Shown here in pieces: positions 3,069-31,517 of a stretch of DNA of 32,456 bases. Under the pieces are notes generated by a model, which saw only the letters and a program-made list of their open reading frames with translations, had not been told where the DNA came from and did no database searches. This DNA is from a virus (Duplodnaviria > Caudoviricetes), in the IMG/VR virus record IMGVR_UViG_3300006639_000017, positions 1 to 32,456 of that record. One strand, given 5' to 3'. Position 1 is the first letter of the stretch; every line of letters starts with the position of its first letter. The translations under genes were made by a program, and so were the position numbers.

Positions 3069-3108
3069 ATGGCTGTAGTATTTGAAATCAAAACAAGGAG
3101 TAACACAC

Positions 3109-4242
3109 ATGATCGCTTACACCAACTTCCTGTCGCACGCCGAAGTCGCCGCCTCTATCGTCGCAGACGGGCACGTTCTCACCACTCACATCTTGGGTGA
3201 GACGGGCATCGGCAAGACGGCTGTCGGCAAGCTGGTAGCCAAGGCGCTGCCCACCCACAGATTCAGCATCATCGACGCAACTCAGGTGTCGGACGGCAGC
3301 ATCACGCTGCCTGTGCTCGATGTTGAGCGTGGTATCTCAGATGAGTTACCAAATGTGCGGTTCGGTGTCAGCCGCACCAGTCAGCGTGGTGTCGATGGTA
3401 GCCAGCCCATCATCGTGTTCATTGACGAGTACAACAAGGCGTCCAAGTACGCCAAGAATGCACTGGCTCCGGTGATCTACGAGCGCAGGCTGGGTCACTT
3501 CTACCTGCCCGACAGTAGTGTCGTCATCCTTGCATCCAACCTTGGCGTAGAGGGCTACGGCGATACGTCGCAGATGTTCCTCAAGACTCGGGAAGCCACG
3601 CTGTACATGCGCAAGCCCACGTGCGAGGAGTTGGTGGCGCACGCCACTGAGCAGGGCTGGGAGGCAGAGGTGATCGGGTTCATTCATGAGCATCCGCAAG
3701 TGTGCGACTCATTCATGGACTACTCCAAGGAGTACGGCGGCAAGTACGCGGGTCGGGATCAGACCAAGGAGAATCAGATGATCCTCAATCCGTACGTGGA
3801 GCAAGACAAGATCACCTCACCGCGTACCCTTGAGTTCTCATCGCACGTGATGCGCGGGGCCAAGGCGCACAAGTTATCGCTCAATGTAGTGCGTGCCAAG
3901 CTGATCGGTACAGTTGGCGAAGCGTGCGCGCTGCTCATGATGGCGTACTTCCAGTCAGGCCAAGAGGCTGAGACTTTCGAGAACGTAGTCGCTGATCCCA
4001 TGGGCGCGCGTCTGAGTAACAACCCCACGGTGCAGTTGATCCAGTTGTTCAAGTTCCTCACACGTGTCTCTGATCGCACTGAGGCGCAGGCAGTGACCAA
4101 GTACATGTCTCGCTGCCGTGAGGAGATGCAGATCCTGTTCTGCAAGCGCGTGTCTAACACAGCCACGCTGATGTCGCTGTTCGTTACCGTCGCTGAGTTC
4201 GGTGCGATGCTGCGCAATAACCGTGACCTGTTCAAGCTGTAA
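3109..4242 (+). CDS. AAA+ ATPase (MoxR/dynein-related type)
   Basis: Walker A GETGIGKT, Walker B IVFIDE, sensor ILASN, SPRT motif; ATG 3109 after AAGGAG. Confidence 0.88.
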   Translation: MIAYTNFLSHAEVAASIVADGHVLTTHILGETGIGKTAVGKLVAKALPTHRFSIIDATQVSDGSITLPVLDVERGISDELPNVRFGVSRTSQRGVDGSQPIIVFIDEYNKASKYAKNALAPVIYERRLGHFYLPDSSVVILASNLGVEGYGDTSQMFLKTREATLYMRKPTCEELVAHATEQGWEAEVIGFIHEHPQVCDSFMDYSKEYGGKYAGRDQTKENQMILNPYVEQDKITSPRTLEFSSHVMRGAKAHKLSLNVVRAKLIGTVGEACALLMMAYFQSGQEAETFENVVADPMGARLSNNPTVQLIQLFKFLTRVSDRTEAQAVTKYMSRCREEMQILFCKRVSNTATLMSLFVTVAEFGAMLRNNRDLFKL

Positions 4243-4269
4243 ACCAACTACTAACAAGGAGTAACACAC

Positions 4270-5568
4270 ATGACTCTCACTACGCATTGGGATCGTCTGA
4301 CGCCTGAGCAGCGCGTCGCTGCGGCTGGCGTGGACTGCATGGGTAGCCCTATGTTTTCGTTCCTCACGGGCTTCTACGTGATGGGCACCGTGTCATTCGA
4401 TGACAAGTGGCAGACCGCTGCCACTAACGGACGCGACGAGTTCTACTCTCCCGAGTTTGTTGCCAAGCAGAACCGCAAGCAGATGCGCTACCTGCGCACC
4501 CACGAGGTGATGCACAAGGCGCTCAAGCACTGCTCGGACTACAAGGAGATCAACAGCAAGTATCCGCTACTGTCCAACATCGCGCAGGATCATGTCATCA
4601 ACCTCATGATTGAGTCGCTAGACCCGACGTTCAGTTTCGTTGAGCGTCCTGCTGGTGTGTCTATCTGTTGCGATGCGCAGTACACCGACATGAGTTGGCT
4701 CGATGTGCTGCGCCTGCTGATTAAAGATCAGCCACCACCGGATAGCCCCAAGCCCAAGAAAGATGGTAGCGGTGGTAAGGCTAGTGCACCGCAGGATGGT
4801 GCGCAGCCGGGGCGTGGTGCGGATGAGCCGCATGATGGTGTGGGTGAGCCGGGTATGCCGCTCGATACGCATCTGCCCCTGCCCGACGATGTTGACGCTG
4901 ACAAGCACAACGAGCAGGTCGATGTCATGGTGCGTCAAGGCAAGTTCATCGCTGACAAGCTGGCTGGTCGCAAGGGTAGCGGTGGCCCGCTTGATGCGCT
5001 TGCACAGACACGTAGCACTGACTGGGCTAGCGCCATGCGTGAGTTCATCGACACGGTGTGCGAGGGCGACGAGTATTCCACGTTCAGCCCGCCCAACAAG
5101 CGCCTGCAGCACCTCAACAACATCGTGCTGCCGTCTAGGTTCGATGAGCGTGCGGGTGAGCTAATCATTAACTGCGATACGTCAGGGTCTATGGGTAGCG
5201 TATATCCCACAGTGTTCGGTGAGATCGCGCGCATCGTGCAGGTTGCCAACCCCGAGGCAGTGCGCGTTATCTGGTGGGACACACGTGTGGCAGGCGAGCA
5301 GTTATTCACGCCTGCTCAGTACGCCAACATCGCCAAGCTGTTCAAGCCCAAGGGTGGCGGTGGTACCTCACCCGGTGCAGTGGTCGAGTACGTACGTGCT
5401 AAGAAGTACAAGCCTGTCGCTGCGATATGGCTCACTGATGGCTACCTCGATGGCTCCGAGGGGCAAGCGCGTGGACTCGACATCCCTCAGTTGTGGGGTG
5501 TCGTTGATAACACATCGTTTCGCGCACCTGTCGGCAAGGTTGTGCGTATCAACAGCATGACCCTGTGA
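4270..5568 (+). CDS. HExxH metallopeptidase-like + vWA domain protein (DUF2201-like)
   Basis: TAATNG, HEVMH, MIDAS DTSGSM, GGGGT and LTDGY motifs; follows the AAA ATPase. Confidence 0.88.
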   Translation: MTLTTHWDRLTPEQRVAAAGVDCMGSPMFSFLTGFYVMGTVSFDDKWQTAATNGRDEFYSPEFVAKQNRKQMRYLRTHEVMHKALKHCSDYKEINSKYPLLSNIAQDHVINLMIESLDPTFSFVERPAGVSICCDAQYTDMSWLDVLRLLIKDQPPPDSPKPKKDGSGGKASAPQDGAQPGRGADEPHDGVGEPGMPLDTHLPLPDDVDADKHNEQVDVMVRQGKFIADKLAGRKGSGGPLDALAQTRSTDWASAMREFIDTVCEGDEYSTFSPPNKRLQHLNNIVLPSRFDERAGELIINCDTSGSMGSVYPTVFGEIARIVQVANPEAVRVIWWDTRVAGEQLFTPAQYANIAKLFKPKGGGGTSPGAVVEYVRAKKYKPVAAIWLTDGYLDGSEGQARGLDIPQLWGVVDNTSFRAPVGKVVRINSMTL

Positions 5569-7831: not shown

Positions 7832-7983
7832 TGCTTAACTCAAAGGTGTACAAGCAGTGCAGTAAGAAGTGCGGCAAGTGTCCATCGTGCAAGGCGTTCG
7901 CTAAGGTGCTGCGCGAGATTGATCTGACGAAGGTTAGCAAGCATGAGATCGAAACAAAAAACAGGAGGTTAATGAATGACTAA
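7831..7983 (+). CDS. Small Cys-rich protein (50 aa, absent from ORF track)
   Basis: MLNSKVYKQCSKKCGKCPSCKAFAKVLREIDLTKVSKHEIETKNRRLMND; TGATG coupling, fills the gap exactly. Confidence 0.6.
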   Translation: MLNSKVYKQCSKKCGKCPSCKAFAKVLREIDLTKVSKHEIETKNRRLMND

Positions 7984-8374
7984 AAAATTTATAGCCATGA
8001 TATTAGTGCTCGTAGTGTGGGCTGCAATTTTTATCGCAGTAATCTTTGCTTTGTTTTTTACGTCGAAAGTTTTAGCCGCGCCCCCACCCACTAACCCAGT
8101 GCTCGCGTCGCACTACGGAGTGGGCGATGGGTTTCACGGCAGACGTACTGCTAGTGGTGAGGTGTTTAACGCTCATGCGCTTACCGCTGCGCACAAGACG
8201 CTGCGCTTCGGCACCCAGCTACGCGTGACCAATGTTCGTACTGGCAAGAGCGTAGTGGTACGCATCAATGACCGTGGCCCTTATACACATGGCAGAGGGC
8301 TTGATCTGTCATACGCTGCGGCCCGAGCAATCGGCCTGCGTGGTGTCGGCTACGTTGTGGTGGAGAAAGTATGA
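7976..8374 (+). CDS. rlpA: RlpA-like lytic transglycosylase (DPBB domain) with N-terminal TM/signal
   Basis: ASHYG..FHGRRTASGE.FN...LTAAHKTL.FGT.LRVTN...VVVRINDRGPY..GR.LDLS; hydrophobic N-terminus; AGGAGG SD. Confidence 0.9.
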   Translation: MTKKFIAMILVLVVWAAIFIAVIFALFFTSKVLAAPPPTNPVLASHYGVGDGFHGRRTASGEVFNAHALTAAHKTLRFGTQLRVTNVRTGKSVVVRINDRGPYTHGRGLDLSYAAARAIGLRGVGYVVVEKV

Positions 8375-8970: not shown

Positions 8971-9161
8971 CTAATAATAGAAAGATGAGATGGAATAGAG
9001 AAGACGAACATCCACCGGTACATACTATCCCCGCAGATAAACAGCATGAACCCGCACCACCACAAGTAGTTATCCACGCCAAAAACTGTTGGTCATGGGG
9101 GCCAGCTCATTACGAGTGTGCGTGTAATGAAATATCTAAACTTAGAGGATGGAAGAAATGA
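8967..9161 (+). CDS. Hypothetical protein
   Basis: 64 aa, GGAGG SD, H..NCWSWGPAHYECA motif. Confidence 0.6.
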   Translation: MTNNRKMRWNREDEHPPVHTIPADKQHEPAPPQVVIHAKNCWSWGPAHYECACNEISKLRGWKK

Positions 9162-9757
9162 CAATGCAAACTGCTGTAATTAGTGTCAAGGGTATCGCTC
9201 CCTTGTTAACAAACAATCCCCAAACTGTAGACCGTTTCAATCATTACGCCCGAAAGATGAAGGCGATCAATGACAAAAAGACTCGGCGCACAGACGATGA
9301 CTATCTTGAACTGCGCCAGCTTGAAATGGCGGCTAAGGTTTATTTTGACGACAGTCTCGGTGCATACGTTCCTTCTACATGGATGAGTGAGGGACTAGCG
9401 GGTTCCGCTTTTGCAACAGTCAAACTATCGCGGGACAAACTGCGGGGTGGACTATTCGTGACGGAATCGAAACTGAAACTAAACTACAAGGACTCCGACA
9501 AAGTTAGAGAGTCTTCTGATCTAGTTGGTAATCCCACGTTCCGCCACACTATTGCGCTACCGCAGGGGCAAGTCCGTGTGGTCAAAGTGTTCCCGATCTT
9601 CCATGAATGGTCGTTTAGCGCAAATGTCGAGTATGACGATGCGATCATGGACTTCGGAATGCTAGATCGTATTGCTAAATACGCTGGGAAATACGTTGGG
9701 TTTGGTGATCTTCGTCCGACATTTGGCCGCGCACTTGTGGAGGTAAAAAGTGAGTAA
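9158..9757 (+). CDS. Stand-alone RAMP / Cas7-like RNA-binding protein, putative effector of the adjacent pentamer-repeat array
   Basis: N-terminal strand ISVKGIAPLL, YVPS motif, PIFHEWSF strand, and C-terminal glycine-rich loop AGKYVGFGDLRPTFGRALV, the arrangement typical of RAMP RRM folds; start 9158 by ATGA coupling (alternatives 9149, 9164). Confidence 0.75.
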   Translation: MTMQTAVISVKGIAPLLTNNPQTVDRFNHYARKMKAINDKKTRRTDDDYLELRQLEMAAKVYFDDSLGAYVPSTWMSEGLAGSAFATVKLSRDKLRGGLFVTESKLKLNYKDSDKVRESSDLVGNPTFRHTIALPQGQVRVVKVFPIFHEWSFSANVEYDDAIMDFGMLDRIAKYAGKYVGFGDLRPTFGRALVEVKSE

Positions 9758-10187
9758 CGTATATCGTGACTTATTTGATGAGTTATTCGATTCTCGATTG
9801 CTTGAGTATGGGTCTATCATCTTGAGGGAAGATATTCATAAACTTTTAGATATTAAAGTGCCCGATGTTGGAACTAAAGCTGAGTTTGATCGGATTACTT
9901 TGATCGAATTATCTGCGATTGGTTATGTTCGCGGAGAGCTACTTAAGATGGGGCGTTACTTAGCTGGTACGCCCTCCGGTTATCGTGTTCTTTTGCCGAG
10001 TGAGAACGCTAAACAAGTTGAGCTTTACATAAACGCTGCATCTAAAAAATTGAAGCGGGCACAAACTCTAAGTAGTAACACACCTAAAGAGTACAAAGCC
10101 GACTTGGACCGTTCGGAAGCTCGGTCCGTGATGATGCAAGATGGAATGCGTTCAAGGTTTTCTTTCGCTGGGATTAATGTGCAGTGA
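9750..10187 (+). CDS. Hypothetical accessory protein between the RAMP gene and the array
   Basis: 145 aa, GGAGG SD, overlaps RAMP stop by 8 bp, shares AT-rich composition; C-terminal helical region. Confidence 0.75.
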   Translation: MSNVYRDLFDELFDSRLLEYGSIILREDIHKLLDIKVPDVGTKAEFDRITLIELSAIGYVRGELLKMGRYLAGTPSGYRVLLPSENAKQVELYINAASKKLKRAQTLSSNTPKEYKADLDRSEARSVMMQDGMRSRFSFAGINVQ

Positions 10188-10243
10188 TGGGTACTGCGGG
10201 GCGAAGAAGAGTACCGTAAAGTAGGGCATTACAGGGAATCGCA

Positions 10244-10304
10244 AAGCAACGCGGGGAGTTGGTCGGCAACGGCCGGTTCTCCGAGTCGTTTTGACTCAGA
10301 AGCA
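10244..10304 (+). repeat. Array structured repeat 1
   Basis: AAGCAACGC + 13-bp stem with GCAA tetraloop (10253-10282) + GAGTC-gtttt-GACTC + AGAAGCA. Confidence 0.85.
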
Positions 10305-10370
10305 AAGTAGTGTAGGGCAACAAATAGAACCGCTCGGCGGCGTATTGAACGTCACCGCACCGTATTGAAG

Positions 10371-10430
10371 AGTAACGCGGTCAGTTCATTTAGGTGAATT
10401 GATCGAGTCACTTTCAGGGACTCAGAAGCA
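10371..10430 (+). repeat. Array structured repeat 2
   Basis: AGTAACGC + GGTCAGTTCAT-ttag-GTGAATTGATC stem + GAGTC-actttcagg-GACTC + AGAAGCA. Confidence 0.85.
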
Positions 10431-10480
10431 GAGCAAGACAAGGAAACGTATTGTAAGTTAGTGCAAGGTACGGTACCGAA

Positions 10481-10538
10481 AAGCAACGCGGTCAGTTCAT
10501 CTAGGTGAATTGATCGAGTCGTTTTTGACTCAAACGCA
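10481..10538 (+). repeat. Array structured repeat 3
   Basis: AAGCAACGC + GGTCAGTTCAT-ctag-GTGAATTGATC + GAGTC-gttttt-GACTC + AAACGCA. Confidence 0.85.
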
Positions 10539-10608
10539 ACGGACTGTAGAGCAGTTTGTAGCAACACAAAGCACCACAAATCAATGTACGGCAAAGAAAC
10601 GTATGGTA

Positions 10609-10656
10609 AAGCAACGCGGGGAGTTGGTTGATAACAGCCGAGCCTGCAAGGTAGGC
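10609..10656 (+). repeat. Array terminal (divergent) repeat 4
   Basis: AAGCAACGCGGGGAGTTGGT shared with repeat 1; stem TTGGTTG-ataa-CAGCCGA, then GCCTGC-aag-GTAGGC. Confidence 0.75.
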
Positions 10657-10703
10657 GACGCGAGTAAAGGGGTTGTGTTTAAGGATTACGAGGTGGTTGC
10701 AGC

Positions 10704-10895
10704 ATGAAAGACACTAAAGCCCGAAGGACTTGCAAAAAGTGTAACAGCACATATGGCGCTTCAGCGTTTGCTACCCGCACGGGATTCATTTGCAAATGGT
10801 GTAAAGGAGGGGGACAAATTGTCCCTACCCCAAAGCAATTATCCCCGCAGCATAAACTTACTAAACTCCCTAAACTCCCTACACATGCCCAATAA
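10704..10895 (+). CDS. Small Zn-finger-like protein
   Basis: CKKC...CKWC; GAGG SD. Confidence 0.6.
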   Translation: MKDTKARRTCKKCNSTYGASAFATRTGFICKWCKGGGQIVPTPKQLSPQHKLTKLPKLPTHAQ

Positions 10896-21813: not shown

Positions 21814-22077
21814 GATGGTCTTAACCATCGAGGCAGGGATCTCAGTGACATGGGCATGCGCCCCGTCCGTCAGCGTTGTTACTAGCTGAACCCACTCATC
21901 ATCTTGATGGACAAGGAACCCAATACTTGCACATAGGTGCAGCCCCTTCTTTTTAGGCGGGGCGGGCTTGTCTCCATCTTGCCAGTGCGAAGTTGTACTA
22001 AACGCGGCGTCCACCCAAGTAACGATTACCATCGGGATGTCTTTGCTTTTTCGCTTGGTAACCATAGTCAGGCTCAT
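21775..22077 (-). CDS. Conserved hypothetical phage protein
   Basis: VIVTWVDA...C.SIGFLV...IPASMV; ATGA coupling to the large virion gene. Confidence 0.75.
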   Translation of the reverse strand: MSLTMVTKRKSKDIPMVIVTWVDAAFSTTSHWQDGDKPAPPKKKGLHLCASIGFLVHQDDEWVQLVTTLTDGAHAHVTEIPASMVKTISLLKSSGLFEAS

Positions 22078-25000
22078 TGCGCCGCAAAACGAGATTCTAC
22101 TTGCCGGTTTACTGCCACAGTTTGACGGGCCAGTGCAAGTTCTATCTGCCGCAACCGGTCAAGCGTCTCGCGTTTCTGCTCCGAACTCATGTTAGGCGCT
22201 GCGCGGACGGCGGCTTCGGCAGCGTTAATTTCCCCAATATTCTGGCGCAGGCTCCCCGCCATGGACGCTATTGCAATTTGCCCAACGTACTGCGTCAGGA
22301 AAGCGCGCGCTCTGGCGGGATCAGCTTCTGCCAGCGCTTTGAACGTAGCCATCGCTTGCTCGTTAGCCTTAGCTTCTTGGAACGCTAGCTGCAAAATGCC
22401 GCCTGCGTCTTTAGGCTGGAACAGCCCGCCGATGATCGGGTAGTCGCTAACACGCGCAGTCGGCTGCGGCACCGCTGTGCCACCAAAAACAAAGTCAGGC
22501 AAGCGCAGCAAGCTGATGCCCAACGTAGCGAAGTAGCCATTGACGAGGTGGTCAACCTGTTTGGGCGACACGCCAACCGTCTCACCAAGGAACTTGGCAA
22601 GGCTAGAAGTTCTTTCATCAAACTGCATCTCGGGGGTCATACGCGCTAGCTTGTCGCTGACAATCGGCTGGCCCGTAAAGATGCTCTTGTTGAGCGCCAC
22701 CTCAAGCGCTGGCTTGATAGCCTGCGGCAAGTAATAAGACGACAGCCCCGGCACCGAGTTAGCGGCAAGGCTCTTCAAACCAGCAACAGCTTGCTTGGAC
22801 TTGGGGTCGTCCTTAGACATATGGTACAGAGCTTCGGGCAGCGCCTTGAACGCGAACCCGATTTCAAACGGGATCGGCACGCGAAGCGGCTCGGCAATAC
22901 CCGGCAGACGGACGAACCAATTACCGTAGCGCTGTTGCGGGGTGGCGTTCTCGTACGCCTCATCGTCGCCCATCATCCCGGCGTAGGCTATCGTCATGCC
23001 AGCCATAACAAACCCGCGCGTAATCAGCTTTTGCTTGACGCGCAGCTTCTCCTGCATAGTGGCTTTGCCAGTCAGCGCCTTGTACAGAACATCAAGGCCG
23101 ACGATCTGTGCGTTGAAGAACGGGATCAGCGTGTTCAGCATGTACATGCTGGGCGATACGCCGCGCTTGCTAAAGTTCATCGACTCAAGCGTAGCAAGGG
23201 TAGCCTCGCGCTCACTCAGACCTTGTTTCAGGAACGAGTTGTACATATTGACGCGGGTCGCCGCGTCGCCAGCCATAGCAACTGAATCCAGCTTCGCCAT
23301 GGCGTAGGACCAGCCCTTCTTGCCGCTGGCAATCTGCTGCATGATCTTCTGCATATCGTCTGGCATGCCAGAGATAACCTGCCCGCCGATCACACCGCGA
23401 CTCTGAAGGACGTTTGCGCTGGTGCTCTTTCCGCTGGCGATCTTGCTCATCTCGCCAAGCGCAGACACAACAGGCTTATAGTCAGCGCCAGAAGTAAACA
23501 ACCCGGTCAGTGAATCGCGTACAACCTGCCGCACCGCATAGCGCGGGTCGCGCGTCACGAACTTGCGCAGAATGTTAGACGGGATGCCAAGCAGCCTGAG
23601 TCCGGCAGGGAACGTAGTGACAATACCTTCCATCCCCTTAACAACAAGCTCGGGCGGGATGTCACCAAACAGTTCTTCCATGGCGGCGGTATCGACGCGC
23701 CACGATTGTTCTTCGCCGTCAACCTTGGCGCTGATGATGTCTTTGCCTTTTACGCCGGAACCGACCCGCACAGCGATACCAAGGTCTTTAAGCGTGAACG
23801 CCACATTGCGCGTGGCAAGGTTGCGCAACGACAGATCCGTCAGCATCGCCGTGTTCTGCAAAGACGATGTGAAGAAGTCGAGCACAGCCTCATCGCCACC
23901 CACAAGGCTTTGAAGATCAGGCTGCTCTTTGATGCTGCCAATCCGAATCGGCGTCTCACCGCCAATGTACAACCCAACGATGCCGTCTTTGCCGACACGG
24001 TAGTAAGGAACGTAGTCGCCCTTCGTGTACGCCGCAGCCACCTGCTTGCTGATAGCGCCGGTCTGAACAGCAAAGTCAATCAGTCCGTTATTGTACTCAC
24101 GGTAAATACCGCGCGCGGTCTGGAACGCTTCGTTGCCACGCCCAAACTCAAGCGCGGCCTTAAGCTCGGTTGGATCGAAGTCTTTGCTGTAGTTCAGCTT
24201 GTCGATCCCAACGCCGTCCTTACCCAGCGCACGCTCAGCCAACAGGTATTTGGTAAACAGAATGTTTGTAGCTTCTGGGTTTCCTACCTTGGCCTTGCTC
24301 AACGCTTCGGACACTTGCTTCAGACTAGCGCCGCGCTTGGACTCAACTATGACTTCGCCTTTGTCGTTCTTGACAAGTTGCAGCGTGCCATTGGTAGCCG
24401 ACTCAGCAACAAAGCTGTTGCGCTGATCGTGCATGCGGATGAAAAACGTCAGGTCCATCGCCTTGACGGGATCAAGTAGTCCTTCTGCAAGCCCGCGTCG
24501 AGCAATCTCTTCATGTACAGCAGCACGGTCAATGAACTGCGTACGGAACTCAAGACCGCGCACATTAGCTTTTACTCGCTCCCAGCCACGTTTCTTTTGG
24601 CTGACCAGCGTGCTGTCTTTAGCCGTCAGAATAGCCGGTACGTCACTGGCGTAGCGCGCACCTTGTCCAAGCCGGAAAGAAATAGCGCCATCGCTGTCAC
24701 GTGCTGCTAGCGGCTTACCCTCATTAAAGTTAGCGCGGGACTGGCGCATCAGGTAGTACAGGTCCGATGTCGTCATCTTAGACGCATCGACCAGCCCCAT
24801 CTTCTTAAGCGCAACGCGCAACGCGCCGACCATCTCCTTAATGAACGTTCCAGCCTTTTGCATCAGGCCAGCGTCTACACGAGCTTCCTCAGTGTAGGCA
24901 ACGATCTCTTTAAGAAGCTGCAAATCACCAGCGCGTTTGTCAGTTTGGCTAATGCCCGCCTGCGGGATGCCAAGCTTCTCAGCCATGTTGCGAACGTCAG

Positions 25001-28000
25001 GGATCTTGTCGAGAAGAGCGTTCATGCCCTTCTCACCAACAAAACCTTCAAAGCCAACGTGACCGACAAGCTCGTGGGTGATGGTCTTTTCAAGGTCAAC
25101 CATATCCGTATGGTTTTCCCCAACAACAAACACCGTTCCGTCAGGCAGAACACCCCCGCGTACGGTGTCGATGTCCACACCCTGCGCTTCGATCCCGTCC
25201 AGTATGGCCTTGGGCAGCGCTGCCTTAGTTGCAAAGTATTGGAACTTAACGCCTTCCGGAGCTTTCAGCTTATCGGCGCGAGCTTGTGCATCAGCGAGGT
25301 TAATGCCGCCGCCTTTCTCACCGACGCGGAACTCAATCGGATTGCTGAAATCAATATCGCCTTCAACGTCGAATTCGGCTTTGTCGATACGCGCCGCTTC
25401 GTTCTCTTCCCGGCGTGCGTTTTGCACAGCGGCGATAGCTTTTGCTGACCCACGAAGTGCTTTAGCCTTTGTTGTGCGCTCTGCTGCTTCTTTCTTTTCT
25501 GGAGAAGTCGCGGCGCGTAGCGCGGGTGGTGTGCTTCCCTTCGACTCATAGCCTTGCATCGCCATACGCGAAACACGGCGGTCAACGTCCGACACGCGTT
25601 TGCCGGGGGTACCGGGCAAAACAACACGCTCACGAGCTTCTTCAACAAGCCGCTTTTTCTTTTCGGCAGGCGTTTCAAAGTAGTCTGAAACTTTTGAAGA
25701 AGTAACGCTAGGCCGGTCAATAACTTTCTTGCGCTGATAAAGCGTGTCGTAAGCGCCGTCTATGTCGAGAACGCCCTGTCCTGCTTTAGCGGTTTCCGAA
25801 GCTTTGTCAGTAGGAAGGATTACCTCGTTAACAACAATCGTCTGGCGCACAACGGGTACGCCAATCTTCTGCGCATCAAAAATTGCCTGCTGCTCTTTAA
25901 GGTTGGCTTCGTTAATGCTGCGCTCTTGGTTGCTACTGAGCTTTTGCAAATCGGCAATAAGCTGCGCCTTGGCTGCGGCAGCTTGTTTTGCAGCCCGTTC
26001 AGCCAGCCTAGTATCTACATCAACTGCGTTGAGCTTTGTGATTAAGTCGTCTTGCGCAACCGACAAAGCCTCTAAGCCCTGCGTTGCTTTGATAAGCGGG
26101 CGCATTACCGCCGCTTTGTGCATCTCGTACGACTGCATTACGCCGTCAGTAAAATTCTCAAGGCGCGTGCGCCCCTGCGTAACGTACTGTTGAAACGCGT
26201 TGAACTCATCAAGCGAAACGATGTTTGTAGAGATAGCCTCGTCTATTCTTGACGGCAGCGCTGCCTGAAGCGTAAGGAAGTCGTCCGCAATAGCCTTGCT
26301 CATGCGGTCAACAGCAACAGCACGGTCAGTCAACAGCTTCGACACCGACTTCATTCTGGCGCGCAAAGCATTTTGTTGGGATGAGCGCCGTCCTTGCGCT
26401 TGCTCTTCAGTTTCCTGAAGCTCCGCAGGGAACTGCTCTTTTACGGCTTGTACAATTTTGCCTTCGCTTTCAACCAACGCATTCGTCGTTCGTTCTACTT
26501 CTCTGTAGTGATCGACAAGCCGCTGCCGGTTGTACGCAAAGTTCGCAAAGTACACCTGCATATCAGCGTTAAACTGGCGCGCATCAAAAGCAGCAACAGT
26601 CACGCGCAGCTTGTTGGCTAGTGCCTCTGCTTGAGGAAGGCTGTTCAACTGCTGAATCAGCTTATTGCGCTTAGTTCTGTTTGCCGCCGAAAGCGGTTTA
26701 GTACGTGCGGCTTCGCGCTTGCTAACTGTCTCTTCAATCCTCTTTGCAAGCTCAAGCAAATTTTTGTACTTGTAACCAGCAATAACCGTTTTTGGAATCG
26801 CGAGGTCTTCAAGCGGCGTTTGTTTTTTGTGCGCAGCGCGCAGCTTAGCCGCTACCGAAAGCAAAAACTTATCTGCGTCGAACTCGCTCTTTAGCTCCGC
26901 CAGCCTGCCCTGCAACTTAACCGCGCGGGTATAGAGAGAATCTCTAGCAGCAGCAAGTTGTTCATTTGCTGATTTCCTAAACTCGGCGTCCATGTTTTTA
27001 GCGCCGGTCTTAAGCTCTTCTAACTGTTCGGTAAGGATGTTGAGCTTAGTAGCGTTAGCGTCGATCAAACGCTGCAACCGCCGCTTAAGTGTCTCCGCAC
27101 GCTTTTCTGCTTTAGTCTGAATAACCGTTGGGCGCAAGACTGTCTTTGGCCCGATGTCGCTATCGCTAGGAGCTTGCTCAAGGCGCACGTTGCTGGTACT
27201 GGGCGTTGTGTAGGAAAACTTCAACGCTTCCTGAGCTTTGGCGCTTGCGTCTGCAAGCTGATTAGCATACGTAAGCTGCGCAACGTAAGGCGTGTTCTCG
27301 CTGGAGACAAGAGCATTATTAAGCGCGATCTTGACGTTAAGCTCGTTTATTTTTCCTTCGACGCTAGCAATCCTGTTAAGGATAGCCTCACGTTTATTCT
27401 TGTAACCCTGCGTCGCCGCTTCTTCAGCACCTAAATCCTCAAGCATCTGCTTAGCGGACTCAACGTCGCCCGGAAGTTCAAAATTCCAGTCGCTGTTAAT
27501 AGCTTTAAGTAGCTTAGCCCTGTCGCTTTCTTGTTTGCTGTTTAGCGTGTCGAGAGACTGCTGATGCACTTCCTGCTCGCGCTTGAGCACCTCGATTTCT
27601 TTTTCAAACTTCTCGTTTTCCTTGATTAAGGGAGCCGCTTCTTTCTTCACGCGGTCCCGCTCAACGTCAAGCTGCTCCTTAGTGCTAGGAATAAGCTCAG
27701 AGAACATATCGCGCGTAGCGGTATCAGGCTCTTTGCCAGCCTCGGCTTCCTGCTTTTCTTGCTCTTCAGCCGCGCGCCTACGCTCTTCCATGCGCGCAAC
27801 CTCTGCCTTGGTCTGGCCTTTAAGCTCAAACTCAGGTTCAACGCGCTGGAACCGCTGCTTATATTCCTCGTTGGCAGCAGCAATCCTCTCTGCTACAGAC
27901 GGGCCTGTAGTGGTCGCCACAGCCTGTGCTTTCTTAGGCAGTCTGAGGATCTTGCGCTCTTTACCGACAACGCCTTCAACGCCTTCCATTGCCTTCGTTT

Positions 28001-31000
28001 CGGCTTCGATTGTTGCTTTTTGCAACTGCTCGGCGTAGACAGCAATTTGTTTAGCGTAAGGGCGGTACTCTTCAAAAGCCTTCTCCAGCGCGGCATCACG
28101 CTGCGTGTCACCACGAAACTTGGACGTAAGCTTTTTGTTTTTTGTCTCAACCAAAGAACGGATTCGGTCGCCGAGCGGTCCTTTGGCGTTGAACAAACTC
28201 TCAATAAACGCCGCCTGCATAGAAGAATCCAGATCGGCAAAGCGAACTGCTGGATCTTCCATTTCTGTTTGCAGCGCAAGATCGCCTTTGCCGGTCCTTG
28301 CCAGCGGACGCTCAGAAAGCGGACGGTCTTCTTTTAGGTCGCCTTTGTTGTATATGGTGGACGGCGTAGCTACAGCGCGTGTGGTCAACTCGTCAATGAC
28401 ACGAATGACCGGACGCAGGACTGCGTACTTAGACGCTGCTGGGAGAGGCTTACCGCCTTCTTGTACTCGCTGAAGGCTAAGCTCGCGGTACAACGTGTCG
28501 ATGTAATCTTTGCCAAGCTTCTTGAGCAGATCCGATTTCTCTTTAAGCTCTCTGCGCCTAGCGTTGTTGATATCGGTGCGCCGCTTTTTCTCGGCAGCAC
28601 TCATTGTTTTGCTAATAGGCAACCGACGGAACAAGTCGCTAGTACGCACTTCCCACGCAGCGCGAACAATGTCGTCAAAAATTTGCTCACGCTTTAGGTA
28701 CAGGTCGTTCTCTGTACCTTTGTACTCCGCGCGCGTTTGTTCAGCCGGTTTAGCCTGCGCAGCTTCTGCTTTCTTCTTACCGGCGGTGGTGAACTTTTCA
28801 AGCTCAGGCTGGGCAAGCGCGTCTTGCAAGACGGCAATTCTGTCGTTTACGCTTTGAAGTCGCTGTTCGGCTACAGCGCGTTGCTCTGGGGAAAGCTTAA
28901 GCCCTTCCGCCTCTGTACGTTCTCCACGTGGGCGAAGCGCACTAATGGTAGACAGTGACTTCTCAAGCTCACGCCTTTCCTGCTCAAGCCCAGCGATCTT
29001 GCTTTCTGCCGCCTCAACACCAAGACCGGCAGTAATAGGACGGGCTTCCGGGTTTCTGTATTTAGCAAGGTTTTCGCGGGACAGGTTTTGCTGGGTACTG
29101 GCAACTTCAACGGCACTAGCCAACCGGTTAAGCGCGGCGGAGATCGCAGCTTGCTCACCAGTTTGTTGCTCGGGGGCGGGCGCAAGCAGCCCAGCAATCT
29201 TATCGACAGTAGTATCGACAGCCCGCGCGTCAGACACAGCCTTTTCAGACCGCATACGAAGATCGCGCAGCACGTTAAGCTGAGCGTTCTTCTCCATGAG
29301 CGCGCGCCCATAGTCGTTTAGATACCCGTTTTCGTCAGCGACATCTTTTGCGTTCTTAGCCGCTTTATCCAGTTCGGTTTGTAGCTGCTCAATTCTGGAG
29401 GTTGCTTTCTCAAGCAAGCGCCTAGCTGCCTCCGGGTCATTGAGGTCAGAGTCCACACCGCGCAGATTAAGACCAAGCTTGGACGAGAGATCGCTCGAAA
29501 CTACGTTACGGTCAAGGTTTTCCTTAACCTGCTGACGATATGCTTCAGCCTTATCGCGCTCTTCTTTCTCCAACCTGCGGGCTTCGGCCAGTGCCGCGCC
29601 TTTATCTTCTTGCGCTTTAGCACGGGCAACGGCAAGCCGTTCGTTAATCCGCGCTTCCGGATCGGGCAAAAGAAGTTTGAGCGGATTATCCAGCGCTGCC
29701 TCAACCACATCCGCAGAACGCGACGCAGCCGCAAACTGATCGCGCTGTTGCTTACGCTGCTCGGCCTCTTGGAACAAACGCTCTTGATCGCGCTGTTTAC
29801 GCGCAAACTCATCCGAAAGAGTTAGCTGTTCTTGCTGAGCGTTGCTTACGCCAGTAGACGCAGCTTGCGCTTCGCGCAGTGCATTTTCTACCGTACTTAA
29901 AGAAGCGCCCGGCTTGGTAGCCCGCGCAAGTGCGGATTGAAGATTGCCAGCGGCAGTAGCTCCGCGATCCAACGGGATAGCTTCGCCAAACAAACCCATG
30001 GTCTGCCCTGCGGGTACAACTTCTTCTTCAGCAAACAAGCTGCCTTGGGGAGCAGCGCCCATCTGAGAACCAATACGCTCAGCGTCCGCAAGCGCACTTT
30101 CCATTTGCTGCTGGCGGCGAATGTTTTGCTGCAAAAGCTCCAGTTTCTGCGCTTCCGGCAAATTCTGTCGGCCAATAGCTACTCGCTGCTGCTTAAGCGT
30201 TTCGATCTCGTTCATCAAAACCCGGCGTTCGCGGTCTATAGCAGCGAAGTCTTGCGGAGCCTGAGCGCCTTCCGGACGAGCCGCAGCCTGTGCTTCGCCT
30301 TGTCTAACAATGTCTTGCAGACGAGCAACTTCATCCCAGTTACCGTCGCGCTGTGCTTGAACCATTGCAGAACGCGCAGCGTTAATCTGCTGCGGGCTAA
30401 CCTGTAGCGCGCTAGCAGCGCCAAACATATCCGGCTGAGCGGACGCCCTGCCCATCGGAGACTCAATCGGCATGAACTTAGCCGCAGCCTCCATGCCTGC
30501 TGCTCGCTCTTCTGCGGCATCTTTTTCTTGTTGAACTAGCTTAGCCTGCGCCCGCTCAGCGGTGCGCTGTTCGATCTGTTTTTGCTCGACTTGTTCTTGC
30601 GCACCACTTCTTTGAGAGTAGCGACCAGCGGCACCAAGCGGGGCAAGAAGCGACGCACCATACGCATTCTCAGCGTACTCTTTCATGGCGTCGTCAGTAG
30701 TAAGCGGCAACCCGGCTTGCAGCCGCTCAATCATTGCCTGCCCGACTTCAGTCGGAACTTCAGCAAGTACGCTAGTCCCAGCGCCCTTAGCCAACGTGGT
30801 GCGCAGCCGCTCTTCAGCCAGCTTGACGACCTGTGCTTCGCTGCGTCTGACCAGTTGCTGTTCGGGGACGCCAAGAATCTTAGCGATCATCCCACGCCCA
30901 AGCGGGATAGCCTGCGCAGCTACATCAAGCGCAGCCGCAGGAGCGGCAGCAGCAAACGCCTTACCGGCAGAAACATCGACAGGAGCGCCACGTTCCTGCT

Positions 31001-31517
31001 GCTCTCGGGCTTGTCGTTCTGCAAACGTACCACCCATTTCGAGCATGGACGGCGCAAACGCACCAAGCGCACCGCCAACCACCGCGCCTGCCGGTCCAAA
31101 CGGAGAACCAGCCATAGCGCCAAGTCGAGCGCCAGCGGCGGTAGCACCAATACGAGGAAGCTGTTCAGCAATAGCAAGCGGGATTTGTCGCCCAACTTCC
31201 CCGGCAGCGCCAAGCACGCCTCGTTGTTCATAAGCCTGCTTAAGCAGGTCAAGACCAGTCTGATTAGCGAAACGCTGGTTAATGTCTTTCTGTCGTTCCA
31301 ACCCAGCAAGCGCGGCTTGATTGGCATCCGTAAACAACCCAAACCCGGTACGCGTACCGGAGGCAAGCTGCTCGATGCCTTTACCTGCCGCAGCTAAATA
31401 CCCAGTCTTGGGTTTGTTTTGAAGAGCGTAAGCCTGCGCCCATTGCCACGCCGTACGTGAATCCGGCGCTTCTACTTCGTAAGTCTTACCGCCAAAATCA
31501 ACGTCGTACTTAGGCAT
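22074..31517 (-). CDS. Giant internal virion/ejection polyvalent protein with HExxxH peptidase-like segment and C-terminal LPD38-like domain
   Basis: 3147 aa; Gly/Ala-rich hydrophobic N-terminus, long coiled coils, THELVGHVG (~25059-25076), C-terminal NWFVRLPG..LRVPIPFEIG..FKALPE..KPALEVALNKSIFTGQPIV..SPKQVDHLVNGYF. Confidence 0.85.
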   Translation of the reverse strand: MPKYDVDFGGKTYEVEAPDSRTAWQWAQAYALQNKPKTGYLAAAGKGIEQLASGTRTGFGLFTDANQAALAGLERQKDINQRFANQTGLDLLKQAYEQRGVLGAAGEVGRQIPLAIAEQLPRIGATAAGARLGAMAGSPFGPAGAVVGGALGAFAPSMLEMGGTFAERQAREQQERGAPVDVSAGKAFAAAAPAAALDVAAQAIPLGRGMIAKILGVPEQQLVRRSEAQVVKLAEERLRTTLAKGAGTSVLAEVPTEVGQAMIERLQAGLPLTTDDAMKEYAENAYGASLLAPLGAAGRYSQRSGAQEQVEQKQIEQRTAERAQAKLVQQEKDAAEERAAGMEAAAKFMPIESPMGRASAQPDMFGAASALQVSPQQINAARSAMVQAQRDGNWDEVARLQDIVRQGEAQAAARPEGAQAPQDFAAIDRERRVLMNEIETLKQQRVAIGRQNLPEAQKLELLQQNIRRQQQMESALADAERIGSQMGAAPQGSLFAEEEVVPAGQTMGLFGEAIPLDRGATAAGNLQSALARATKPGASLSTVENALREAQAASTGVSNAQQEQLTLSDEFARKQRDQERLFQEAEQRKQQRDQFAAASRSADVVEAALDNPLKLLLPDPEARINERLAVARAKAQEDKGAALAEARRLEKEERDKAEAYRQQVKENLDRNVVSSDLSSKLGLNLRGVDSDLNDPEAARRLLEKATSRIEQLQTELDKAAKNAKDVADENGYLNDYGRALMEKNAQLNVLRDLRMRSEKAVSDARAVDTTVDKIAGLLAPAPEQQTGEQAAISAALNRLASAVEVASTQQNLSRENLAKYRNPEARPITAGLGVEAAESKIAGLEQERRELEKSLSTISALRPRGERTEAEGLKLSPEQRAVAEQRLQSVNDRIAVLQDALAQPELEKFTTAGKKKAEAAQAKPAEQTRAEYKGTENDLYLKREQIFDDIVRAAWEVRTSDLFRRLPISKTMSAAEKKRRTDINNARRRELKEKSDLLKKLGKDYIDTLYRELSLQRVQEGGKPLPAASKYAVLRPVIRVIDELTTRAVATPSTIYNKGDLKEDRPLSERPLARTGKGDLALQTEMEDPAVRFADLDSSMQAAFIESLFNAKGPLGDRIRSLVETKNKKLTSKFRGDTQRDAALEKAFEEYRPYAKQIAVYAEQLQKATIEAETKAMEGVEGVVGKERKILRLPKKAQAVATTTGPSVAERIAAANEEYKQRFQRVEPEFELKGQTKAEVARMEERRRAAEEQEKQEAEAGKEPDTATRDMFSELIPSTKEQLDVERDRVKKEAAPLIKENEKFEKEIEVLKREQEVHQQSLDTLNSKQESDRAKLLKAINSDWNFELPGDVESAKQMLEDLGAEEAATQGYKNKREAILNRIASVEGKINELNVKIALNNALVSSENTPYVAQLTYANQLADASAKAQEALKFSYTTPSTSNVRLEQAPSDSDIGPKTVLRPTVIQTKAEKRAETLKRRLQRLIDANATKLNILTEQLEELKTGAKNMDAEFRKSANEQLAAARDSLYTRAVKLQGRLAELKSEFDADKFLLSVAAKLRAAHKKQTPLEDLAIPKTVIAGYKYKNLLELAKRIEETVSKREAARTKPLSAANRTKRNKLIQQLNSLPQAEALANKLRVTVAAFDARQFNADMQVYFANFAYNRQRLVDHYREVERTTNALVESEGKIVQAVKEQFPAELQETEEQAQGRRSSQQNALRARMKSVSKLLTDRAVAVDRMSKAIADDFLTLQAALPSRIDEAISTNIVSLDEFNAFQQYVTQGRTRLENFTDGVMQSYEMHKAAVMRPLIKATQGLEALSVAQDDLITKLNAVDVDTRLAERAAKQAAAAKAQLIADLQKLSSNQERSINEANLKEQQAIFDAQKIGVPVVRQTIVVNEVILPTDKASETAKAGQGVLDIDGAYDTLYQRKKVIDRPSVTSSKVSDYFETPAEKKKRLVEEARERVVLPGTPGKRVSDVDRRVSRMAMQGYESKGSTPPALRAATSPEKKEAAERTTKAKALRGSAKAIAAVQNARREENEAARIDKAEFDVEGDIDFSNPIEFRVGEKGGGINLADAQARADKLKAPEGVKFQYFATKAALPKAILDGIEAQGVDIDTVRGGVLPDGTVFVVGENHTDMVDLEKTITHELVGHVGFEGFVGEKGMNALLDKIPDVRNMAEKLGIPQAGISQTDKRAGDLQLLKEIVAYTEEARVDAGLMQKAGTFIKEMVGALRVALKKMGLVDASKMTTSDLYYLMRQSRANFNEGKPLAARDSDGAISFRLGQGARYASDVPAILTAKDSTLVSQKKRGWERVKANVRGLEFRTQFIDRAAVHEEIARRGLAEGLLDPVKAMDLTFFIRMHDQRNSFVAESATNGTLQLVKNDKGEVIVESKRGASLKQVSEALSKAKVGNPEATNILFTKYLLAERALGKDGVGIDKLNYSKDFDPTELKAALEFGRGNEAFQTARGIYREYNNGLIDFAVQTGAISKQVAAAYTKGDYVPYYRVGKDGIVGLYIGGETPIRIGSIKEQPDLQSLVGGDEAVLDFFTSSLQNTAMLTDLSLRNLATRNVAFTLKDLGIAVRVGSGVKGKDIISAKVDGEEQSWRVDTAAMEELFGDIPPELVVKGMEGIVTTFPAGLRLLGIPSNILRKFVTRDPRYAVRQVVRDSLTGLFTSGADYKPVVSALGEMSKIASGKSTSANVLQSRGVIGGQVISGMPDDMQKIMQQIASGKKGWSYAMAKLDSVAMAGDAATRVNMYNSFLKQGLSEREATLATLESMNFSKRGVSPSMYMLNTLIPFFNAQIVGLDVLYKALTGKATMQEKLRVKQKLITRGFVMAGMTIAYAGMMGDDEAYENATPQQRYGNWFVRLPGIAEPLRVPIPFEIGFAFKALPEALYHMSKDDPKSKQAVAGLKSLAANSVPGLSSYYLPQAIKPALEVALNKSIFTGQPIVSDKLARMTPEMQFDERTSSLAKFLGETVGVSPKQVDHLVNGYFATLGISLLRLPDFVFGGTAVPQPTARVSDYPIIGGLFQPKDAGGILQLAFQEAKANEQAMATFKALAEADPARARAFLTQYVGQIAIASMAGSLRQNIGEINAAEAAVRAAPNMSSEQKRETLDRLRQIELALARQTVAVNRQVESRFAAQ

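Follow-up and report, generated by a model that had tools for sequence, protein, structure and literature searches.

A phage cassette of GHA-NN guide tracts beside a Vipr homolog, with guides likely directed at genes of competing mobile elements

Four tracts of a 5-nt unit, in which a GHA triplet recurs and two bases vary (GHA-NN), lie in a phage genome, and they raise the question of whether the variable dinucleotides are a code, which protein reads it and against what it is directed. Taking the whole explanation jointly, we consider it very likely that the region is a phage VIPR cassette of a GHA-scaffold clade, with guides that likely silence genes of competing mobile elements. VIPR was published in 2026 as a system of the protein Vipr and guides of 9-16 GGY/NN units, which read their targets with a 1-nt skip falling mostly on wobble positions and bring about repression; alternative repeats, NNNGG, YNNNG and NNNNG, are described as well (10.64898/2026.04.26.720920). 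Since the skip code is already published as VIPR, the new part here is the GHA scaffold, the matching changes in the protein and the targets.

Composition of the cassette and its guide tracts

The window, that is, the whole stretch of 32,456 nucleotides analysed, is a complete virus record and encodes DNA polymerase A, an SNF2 helicase and a primase-helicase. Elsewhere in it we observed an AAA ATPase gene paired with a DUF2201 metallopeptidase/VWA gene (3082-5568), a DPBB_1 lytic-transglycolase-like gene (7976-8374) and, on the minus strand (22074-31517), a gene for a protein of 3147 aa, the sole match of which is the unnamed phrog_9854 at its end. The features of the region with the tracts are as follows.

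9149..9757, plus strand: vipr, by homology the gene of a RAMP-like protein that would bind guide RNA; the product has 202 aa when counted from the first ATG and 199 aa as called in the database
9750..10187, plus strand: accessory gene, distantly vap1-like by profile similarity, 145 aa
10181-10250, plus strand: guide tract 1, 14 GHA-NN units, 12 informative
10251..10297, plus strand: tail 1, long hairpin, then GAGTC/GACTC stem; fold z -4.1
10302-10376, plus strand: guide tract 2, 15 units, 13 informative
10377..10422, plus strand: tail 2; fold z -3.9
10428-10487 (10426-10487 with the preceding dinucleotide), plus strand: guide tract 3, 12 units
10488..10530, plus strand: tail 3, near copy of tail 2; fold z -4.0
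10536-10615, plus strand: guide tract 4, 16 units, 14 informative
10616..10641, plus strand: tail 4, shortened to the first hairpin, without the final stem; fold z -1.4

The product of vipr matched SUSP1 Vipr (PDB 36pp_D) with an E-value of 1.3e-15 as a single sequence, the only significant match, and of 9.3e-26 by a 30-sequence profile, whose 30 rows were drawn from the 120 listed of 297 homologs. It also matched phrog_4652 (E 7e-51) and is ~29% identical to the Felixounavirus Vipr. The accessory protein resembled the product of the gene that follows vipr in Felixounavirus by profile comparison (probability 77, E 2e-5), and BLASTP gave no alignment between the two; phrog_5926 was matched weakly (E 0.019), and an atlas search returned only unnamed, mostly viral clusters. 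Of 51 GHA loci, 50 have a homolog of this protein next to Vipr; of 22 GGY loci, 2 have a weak one. Pfam assigned no domain, nuclease domains included, to either gene.

As the tracts lie downstream of a Vipr homolog and a vap1-like gene, the region is read as a phage VIPR locus. It resembles VIPR type II (SUSP1, Pseudomonas fulva) in its homologous Vipr and phage-borne setting, in its pentamer tracts with structured 3′ tails, NN code and 1-nt skip on wobble positions and, more weakly, in its putatively vap1-like neighbour. Unlike in type II with GGY, the triplet here is GHA (mostly GCA across the clade), Arg138 and His17 are replaced, and a Trp stands at the third-base pocket. The tracts, with 12-16 units, fall within the published VIPR range, and the paper allows a related consensus. 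The locus is minimal, with vipr and the accessory gene and without a cas operon. It is like Class 1 CRISPR RAMPs (Cas5/6/7) in having a RAMP-type protein with a C-terminal glycine-rich loop (10.64898/2026.04.26.720920), but a Pfam scan of 17 ORFs found no Cas family, and the pairing would be gapped and non-contiguous.

In runs X4 and X5, contigs of related phages bridge 9161-10837 and 9125-10641, and the cassette therefore looks like an accessory insert. Contigs of these runs at higher depth are without the cassette or have different DNA in its place (window 9125-10837). At its right edge the cassette ends in tail 4; the window is rejoined at 10641 by a contig of a related phage (run X5), and one run X3 contig goes on from tail 4 with a tail-like end. 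In a single contig, of run X3, tract 1 shows two differences, one in NN and one at position 2. A search for a sigma-70-type promoter gave no match (0 versus 2.6 in shuffles).

The initial annotation had counted 57 pentamers with G at position 1 in 48, A at position 3 in 51 and G at position 2 in one, in tracts that keep phase without indels and differ by whole pentamers (14, 15, 12 and 16), and our recount gave exactly these figures. Position 1 was G48/A5/T4, position 2 C27/T19/A10/G1 and position 3 A51/G4/T2, with entropies of 0.79, 1.58, 0.58, 1.90 and 1.98 bits for positions 1 to 5; no GGY tract was called in the window, in line with G at position 2 in 1 of 57 units. Successive tracts are separated by 51, 51 and 48 nt. 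When 12-unit windows were scanned, 48 on the plus strand held at least 6 G[ACT]A triplets (best 10 of 12), all of them at 10166-10596, compared with a maximum of 4 on the minus strand and of 6 in 200 base shuffles.

Such a period could in principle stem from the decay of a pentamer microsatellite, or from a repeat at the DNA level without a guide role. Apart from the 5-nt period nothing favours this origin, and we regard it as practically untenable in view of the neighbouring Vipr gene, the conserved tails, the exact codon-phased target described below and the unequal decay of the columns. Equal decay across the five columns was rejected (p 6e-14), which rules out microsatellite decay, as the initial annotation had argued. 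Its reading that the information sits in NN is supported, and its statement that positions 4-5 vary freely holds outside the last two units of each tract. In the tract bodies these positions do vary freely, and both the target of tract 3 and the entropies in homologs (1.92 and 1.98 bits at positions 4 and 5 of 146 homologous tracts) place information in NN; in the last two units of all four tracts, however, positions 4-5 are AA or GA and then AC, mostly the same in relatives, and these units are tail structure and no part of the guide. Since tract 1 runs over the stop codon of the gene before it, the position of its 5′ end is uncertain. Tract 1 also has an inverted repeat in its NN string (GA-CC-AA, GG, TT-GG-TC; window 10206-10240), so that its target would be a gapped palindrome, possibly by chance.

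The last two units of every tract are near-constant, and beyond them come first a long hairpin, then a short stem. In tail 1 a pseudoknot is predicted between the short-stem loop (10288-10292) and AAAGC (10243-10247), and in tail 2 a C-G pair of the predicted pseudoknot becomes T-A, with the change on both sides (AGAGT with ACTTT). Among 172 tracts, 60 distinct tails had a recognisable short stem, and in these its loop paired best with five bases across the last two units, in 238 of 300 cells; permutation gave 212 +/- 5 cells, and 0 of 1000 permutations reached 238, in a count that ignores kinship and in which an alternative register (-3, five bases on) scores nearly as well. The predicted pseudoknot would explain why the last two NN of tract 3 fail to match its target. 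Rfam gave 0 matches up to E 1.

The GHA clade and the triplet-reading residues of Vipr

A sample of 72 viral loci, 6 annotated phages and the window, with two partial ORFs left out, yielded 66 distinct Vipr proteins, of which 43 were GHA, 20 GGY, 1 GGA and 2 unlabelled (one set by hand). In a quick tree, the 43 GHA proteins and one unlabelled protein formed a single branch (SH-aLRT 100, length 1.4), which includes the cultured phages phiHSIC (YP_224250) and Vibrio 1.266.O (AUR99493). In 146 distinct GHA tracts (1854 units), position 1 was G in 92%, position 2 was C, A, T and G in 76, 13, 6 and 4%, and position 3 was A in 93%, the tract caller having selected on positions 1 and 3 and left positions 2, 4 and 5 unselected. 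Locus L040 has a GHA-clade Vipr and an accessory gene, with no tract within the scanned region. The GCA array of Vibrio 1.266.O is at L075:2840-3810 and that of phiHSIC at L076:3636-3900, where the annotated ORF21 overlies it on the opposite strand and is probably a false gene call. Both phages are tractable test systems for GCA arrays.

According to passages of 10.64898/2026.04.26.720927, SUSP1 Vipr reads G1 by H17 and D177 and G2 by R138 and W178, holds Y3 in a pocket of E71, M72, R179, C173 and T175 from which purines are excluded, and loses silencing when R138 is replaced (R138A). We mapped residues to SUSP1 numbering by alignment via a Felixounavirus Vipr. Both Arg138 and His17 were present in 0 of 43 GHA and 20 of 20 GGY proteins, Arg138 being kept also in the single GGA protein; Trp occupied site 72 in 43 of 43 GHA versus 0 of 20 GGY proteins, and F or Y occupied site 175 in 42 of 43 versus 1 of 20. 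D177 and R179 were invariant in both groups, and the counts at the pocket sites were identical in four MAFFT modes. In the window's Vipr, the equivalents of R138, W178 and H17 are F148, L188 and N22, E71/M72 corresponds to T77/W78, and D187 and R189 are kept; HMMER puts Trp78 at site 71 instead of 72.

Judged from the sequences, the pocket changes fit the change of triplet: loss of Arg138 would relax position 2, and Trp78 and Phe185 would accept A at position 3. The changes are confined to one clade and therefore count as one evolutionary event, and they may be passengers. Were they passengers, GHA could be tolerated drift within a VIPR cassette, and GGY and GHA guides would be interchangeable. 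We find this unlikely, since the SUSP1 pocket excludes purines at position 3 and R138A abolishes silencing, as stated in passages of 10.64898/2026.04.26.720927, since the 1854 units have A3 in 93% (partly caller-selected) and G2 in 4%, and since the GGA locus L053 keeps Arg138 together with G2; what speaks for drift is the single clade and event, the loose position 2 of the window (C27/T19/A10) and the relaxed consensus repeats already in 10.64898/2026.04.26.720920. Locus L053 itself carries pure GGA-NN tracts (L053:9699-9880, 10567-10700) beside a Vipr with both Arg138 and His17, and it is a possible intermediate or third scaffold.

Besides the GGY systems, passages of 10.64898/2026.10.21.760802 report 21 non-canonical clusters, with GAC, CAC, WGT and TGH as examples. 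These VIPR-like clusters are like the GHA clade in having non-GGY triplets beside Vipr-like folds; unlike for the GHA clade, the passages on them give no targets or pocket residues. TGH becomes (A/G/T)CA when the other strand is read, and GHA-NN falls under NNNNG if the register is shifted, so the GHA clade may be among these published clusters and repeats. GCA was absent from the searched portions of the text of the VIPR papers and of the supplement of 10.64898/2026.04.26.720920, figures aside, and GHA, GYA, GMA, GNA and TGC were absent from those of 10.64898/2026.10.21.760802, figures aside; the GHA motif may already be present in a published figure (S10, S17).

Candidate target of tract 3, searches with the other tracts, and guides of relatives

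Units 1-10 of tract 3, joined by one wildcard (20 specified bases), matched at least 121 viral and at least 120 genome stretches. As background, genome matches numbered 12 and 11 for the 18-base patterns of tracts 1 and 4, and viral matches 0 for tract 2 at 20 bases. Translated, the 243 matches of tract 3 (in 241 loci) give GRLTLNVLLS, the skipped base being the third of its codon, and 235 of the 243 sites lie in frames open for at least 150 aa. The dinucleotide before unit 1 also fits, matching the next codon of the target at 241 of 243 sites. Two target genes that were tested contain Resolvase and Recombinase domains and have DUF2924 and DUF3489 as neighbours. Among flanked target loci (80 viral and 80 genome), 160 of 160 match the recombinase protein, 148 have DUF2924 (75 viral, 73 genome), and a terminase-like gene is found in 32 of 80 viral and 4 of 80 genome loci.

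The initial annotation had proposed reading with a 1-nt gap that falls on wobble positions, and tract 3 matches the serine-recombinase gene, in a stretch that encodes a helix, exactly under skip 1 only. When up to 2 mismatches were allowed in 201 genomes, all of one class, skip 1 gave 43 sites in 29 genomes, 12 of them exact, compared with no sites for skip 0, 12 for skip 2 and 9 for skip 3 (0 exact in both), and 4 for the reversed pattern; exact sites in the search over skips 0-3 thus came from skip 1 alone, and the 12 and 9 sites under wrong skips, at 1-2 mismatches, are near-matches of a kind that conserved genes yield. Excluding G001, the centre genome chosen for its match, and G045, an unpublished genome on which 2 sites rest, skip 1 retained 40 sites in 27 genomes, 10 of them exact. 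Tract 3 spells a conserved stretch of the recombinase and, by analogy with the published system, would likely silence its gene. Many target loci (L081-L160) are viral contigs of 4-10 kb with DUF3489 and DUF2924, and these short contigs may be small parasitic elements. A literature search on DUF2924 and DUF3489 yielded Wolbachia papers only. For the clade guides L012:396 (14/16) and L034:794 (17/20), weak matches at background level lie in a different conserved stretch of this recombinase family.

SUSP1 VIPR silences a satellite recombinase, according to passages of 10.64898/2026.10.15.759431. The case here is like that of SUSP1 and the F5 satellites described there, in that the guide reads codon positions 1-2 of a mobile-element recombinase; unlike it, the target gene is of the Resolvase+Recombinase kind, has DUF2924/DUF3489 as neighbours and occurs in short viral contigs as well as in many proteobacterial genomes, in elements that are at most candidate satellites of this phage.

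For tracts 1, 2 and 4, we used exact-match seeds and few scans, and none of the three showed a target above background in these. Tract 1 gave 12 genome matches (9 units) and 2 viral matches, at background, and its best extension, 22/24 in locus L332, is about what chance would give with 12 matches. Viral searches with tract 2 gave 0 matches at 10 units and 11 at 8 units, and a metagenome search gave 25 at 9 units, none of which extends; in 301 genomes of one family, with up to 3 mismatches, 0 of 301 matched. Tract 4 had 5 viral and 11 genome matches, at background and none extending, so a tyrosine integrase as its target is unsupported. A self-target in the phage's own genome was not apparent, with best skip-1 scores of 17/24, 17/26, 14/20 and 17/28 for the four tracts. 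The cassette might be partly decayed, with tract 3 alone live and tracts 1, 2 and 4 stale, as the three tracts for which no target was found, the shortened tail 4 and a non-C base at position 2 that is commoner than in most relatives would suggest. We hold this to be somewhat unlikely: tails 1-3 fold well (z about -4), both genes are intact, the searches were of the limited kind given above, and in the published surveys, too, some guides were left without a target (10.64898/2026.04.26.720920).

Guides of relatives bear on the skip code of the GHA clade as well. Those of L003 and of L057/L022 were singled out by eye after 125 clade guides had been read in both directions. The guide L003:11448 had at least 120 genome matches in Arm-DNA-bind_3 integrases, with a best score of 23/24 and one unit that matches in only 1 of 120. 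The guide L057:11069 had 105 exact viral matches in an AAA_24 ATPase; along 10 units it and L022:789 are reverse complements, and the two match one AAA_24 ATPase site from opposite strands. Guides that had played no part in retrieving these loci matched the same ATPase module under skip 1 only (L028, 19/20; L004, 18/18; L018, 15/16), and L005:4094 (21/30) and L022:900 (15/22) gave no match where expected. In pooled target loci, at 90% or more, skip 1 accounted for 8 of 125 guides, four or five of them by construction, compared with 0, 0, 1 and 2 guides for skips 0, 2 and 3 and shuffles. Before target retrieval, 125-128 clade guides showed no skip-1 excess against Vipr-bearing loci (17 vs 11-14 at 85%; 10 vs 3-8). 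The guides L057:11069, L022:789, L028:9350, L004:6379 and L018:9731, from five phage contigs, converge on the AAA_24 ATPase and the next gene (L474:2251-3821), a widespread phage module.

Proposed mode of action and its meaning

In the mechanism that we propose, the cassette would consist of vipr, the vap1-like gene and four guide units, and, as modelled on the SUSP1 system, it would be transcribed and processed to ~110-nt RNAs that assemble into filaments. Vipr likely coats each RNA with one subunit per pentamer, hiding the GHA triplet, and the NN bases would pair with double-stranded DNA, every third base being skipped. Silencing is likely directed at genes of competing mobile elements; by analogy with SUSP1, it would take the form of repression instead of cutting and would block excision of the element.

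SUSP1 Vipr also pairs with RNA in vitro, as reported in passages of 10.64898/2026.04.26.720927, and the guides might act on RNA or direct cutting, not block transcription on DNA. Tract 3 is antisense to the recombinase message, but the L057 and L022 guides share their site from opposite strands, and neither gene of the cassette has a Pfam nuclease domain, so we consider such action very unlikely. Beyond repression at DNA, we put forward tentatively, as possible though doubtful, the joint proposal that the GHA clade is orthogonal, its protein pocket and RNA scaffold having changed in concert, so that it neither reads GGY guides nor is redirected by GGY decoys, and that its natural guides single out the widespread DUF3489-DUF2924-serine-recombinase elements as an unrecognised family of phage parasites.

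With the GHA cassette, the VIPR skip code reaches a scaffold which, by the published structure, SUSP1 Vipr should reject (A3, no G2), and the changed residues, being named, give a direct test of RNA reading by Vipr. For programmable gene silencing, a second scaffold could also serve as an independent channel. The guides indicate who the opponents of these phages may be, namely serine-recombinase elements, integrases and a prophage ATPase module, and different phages converge on the same conserved codons.
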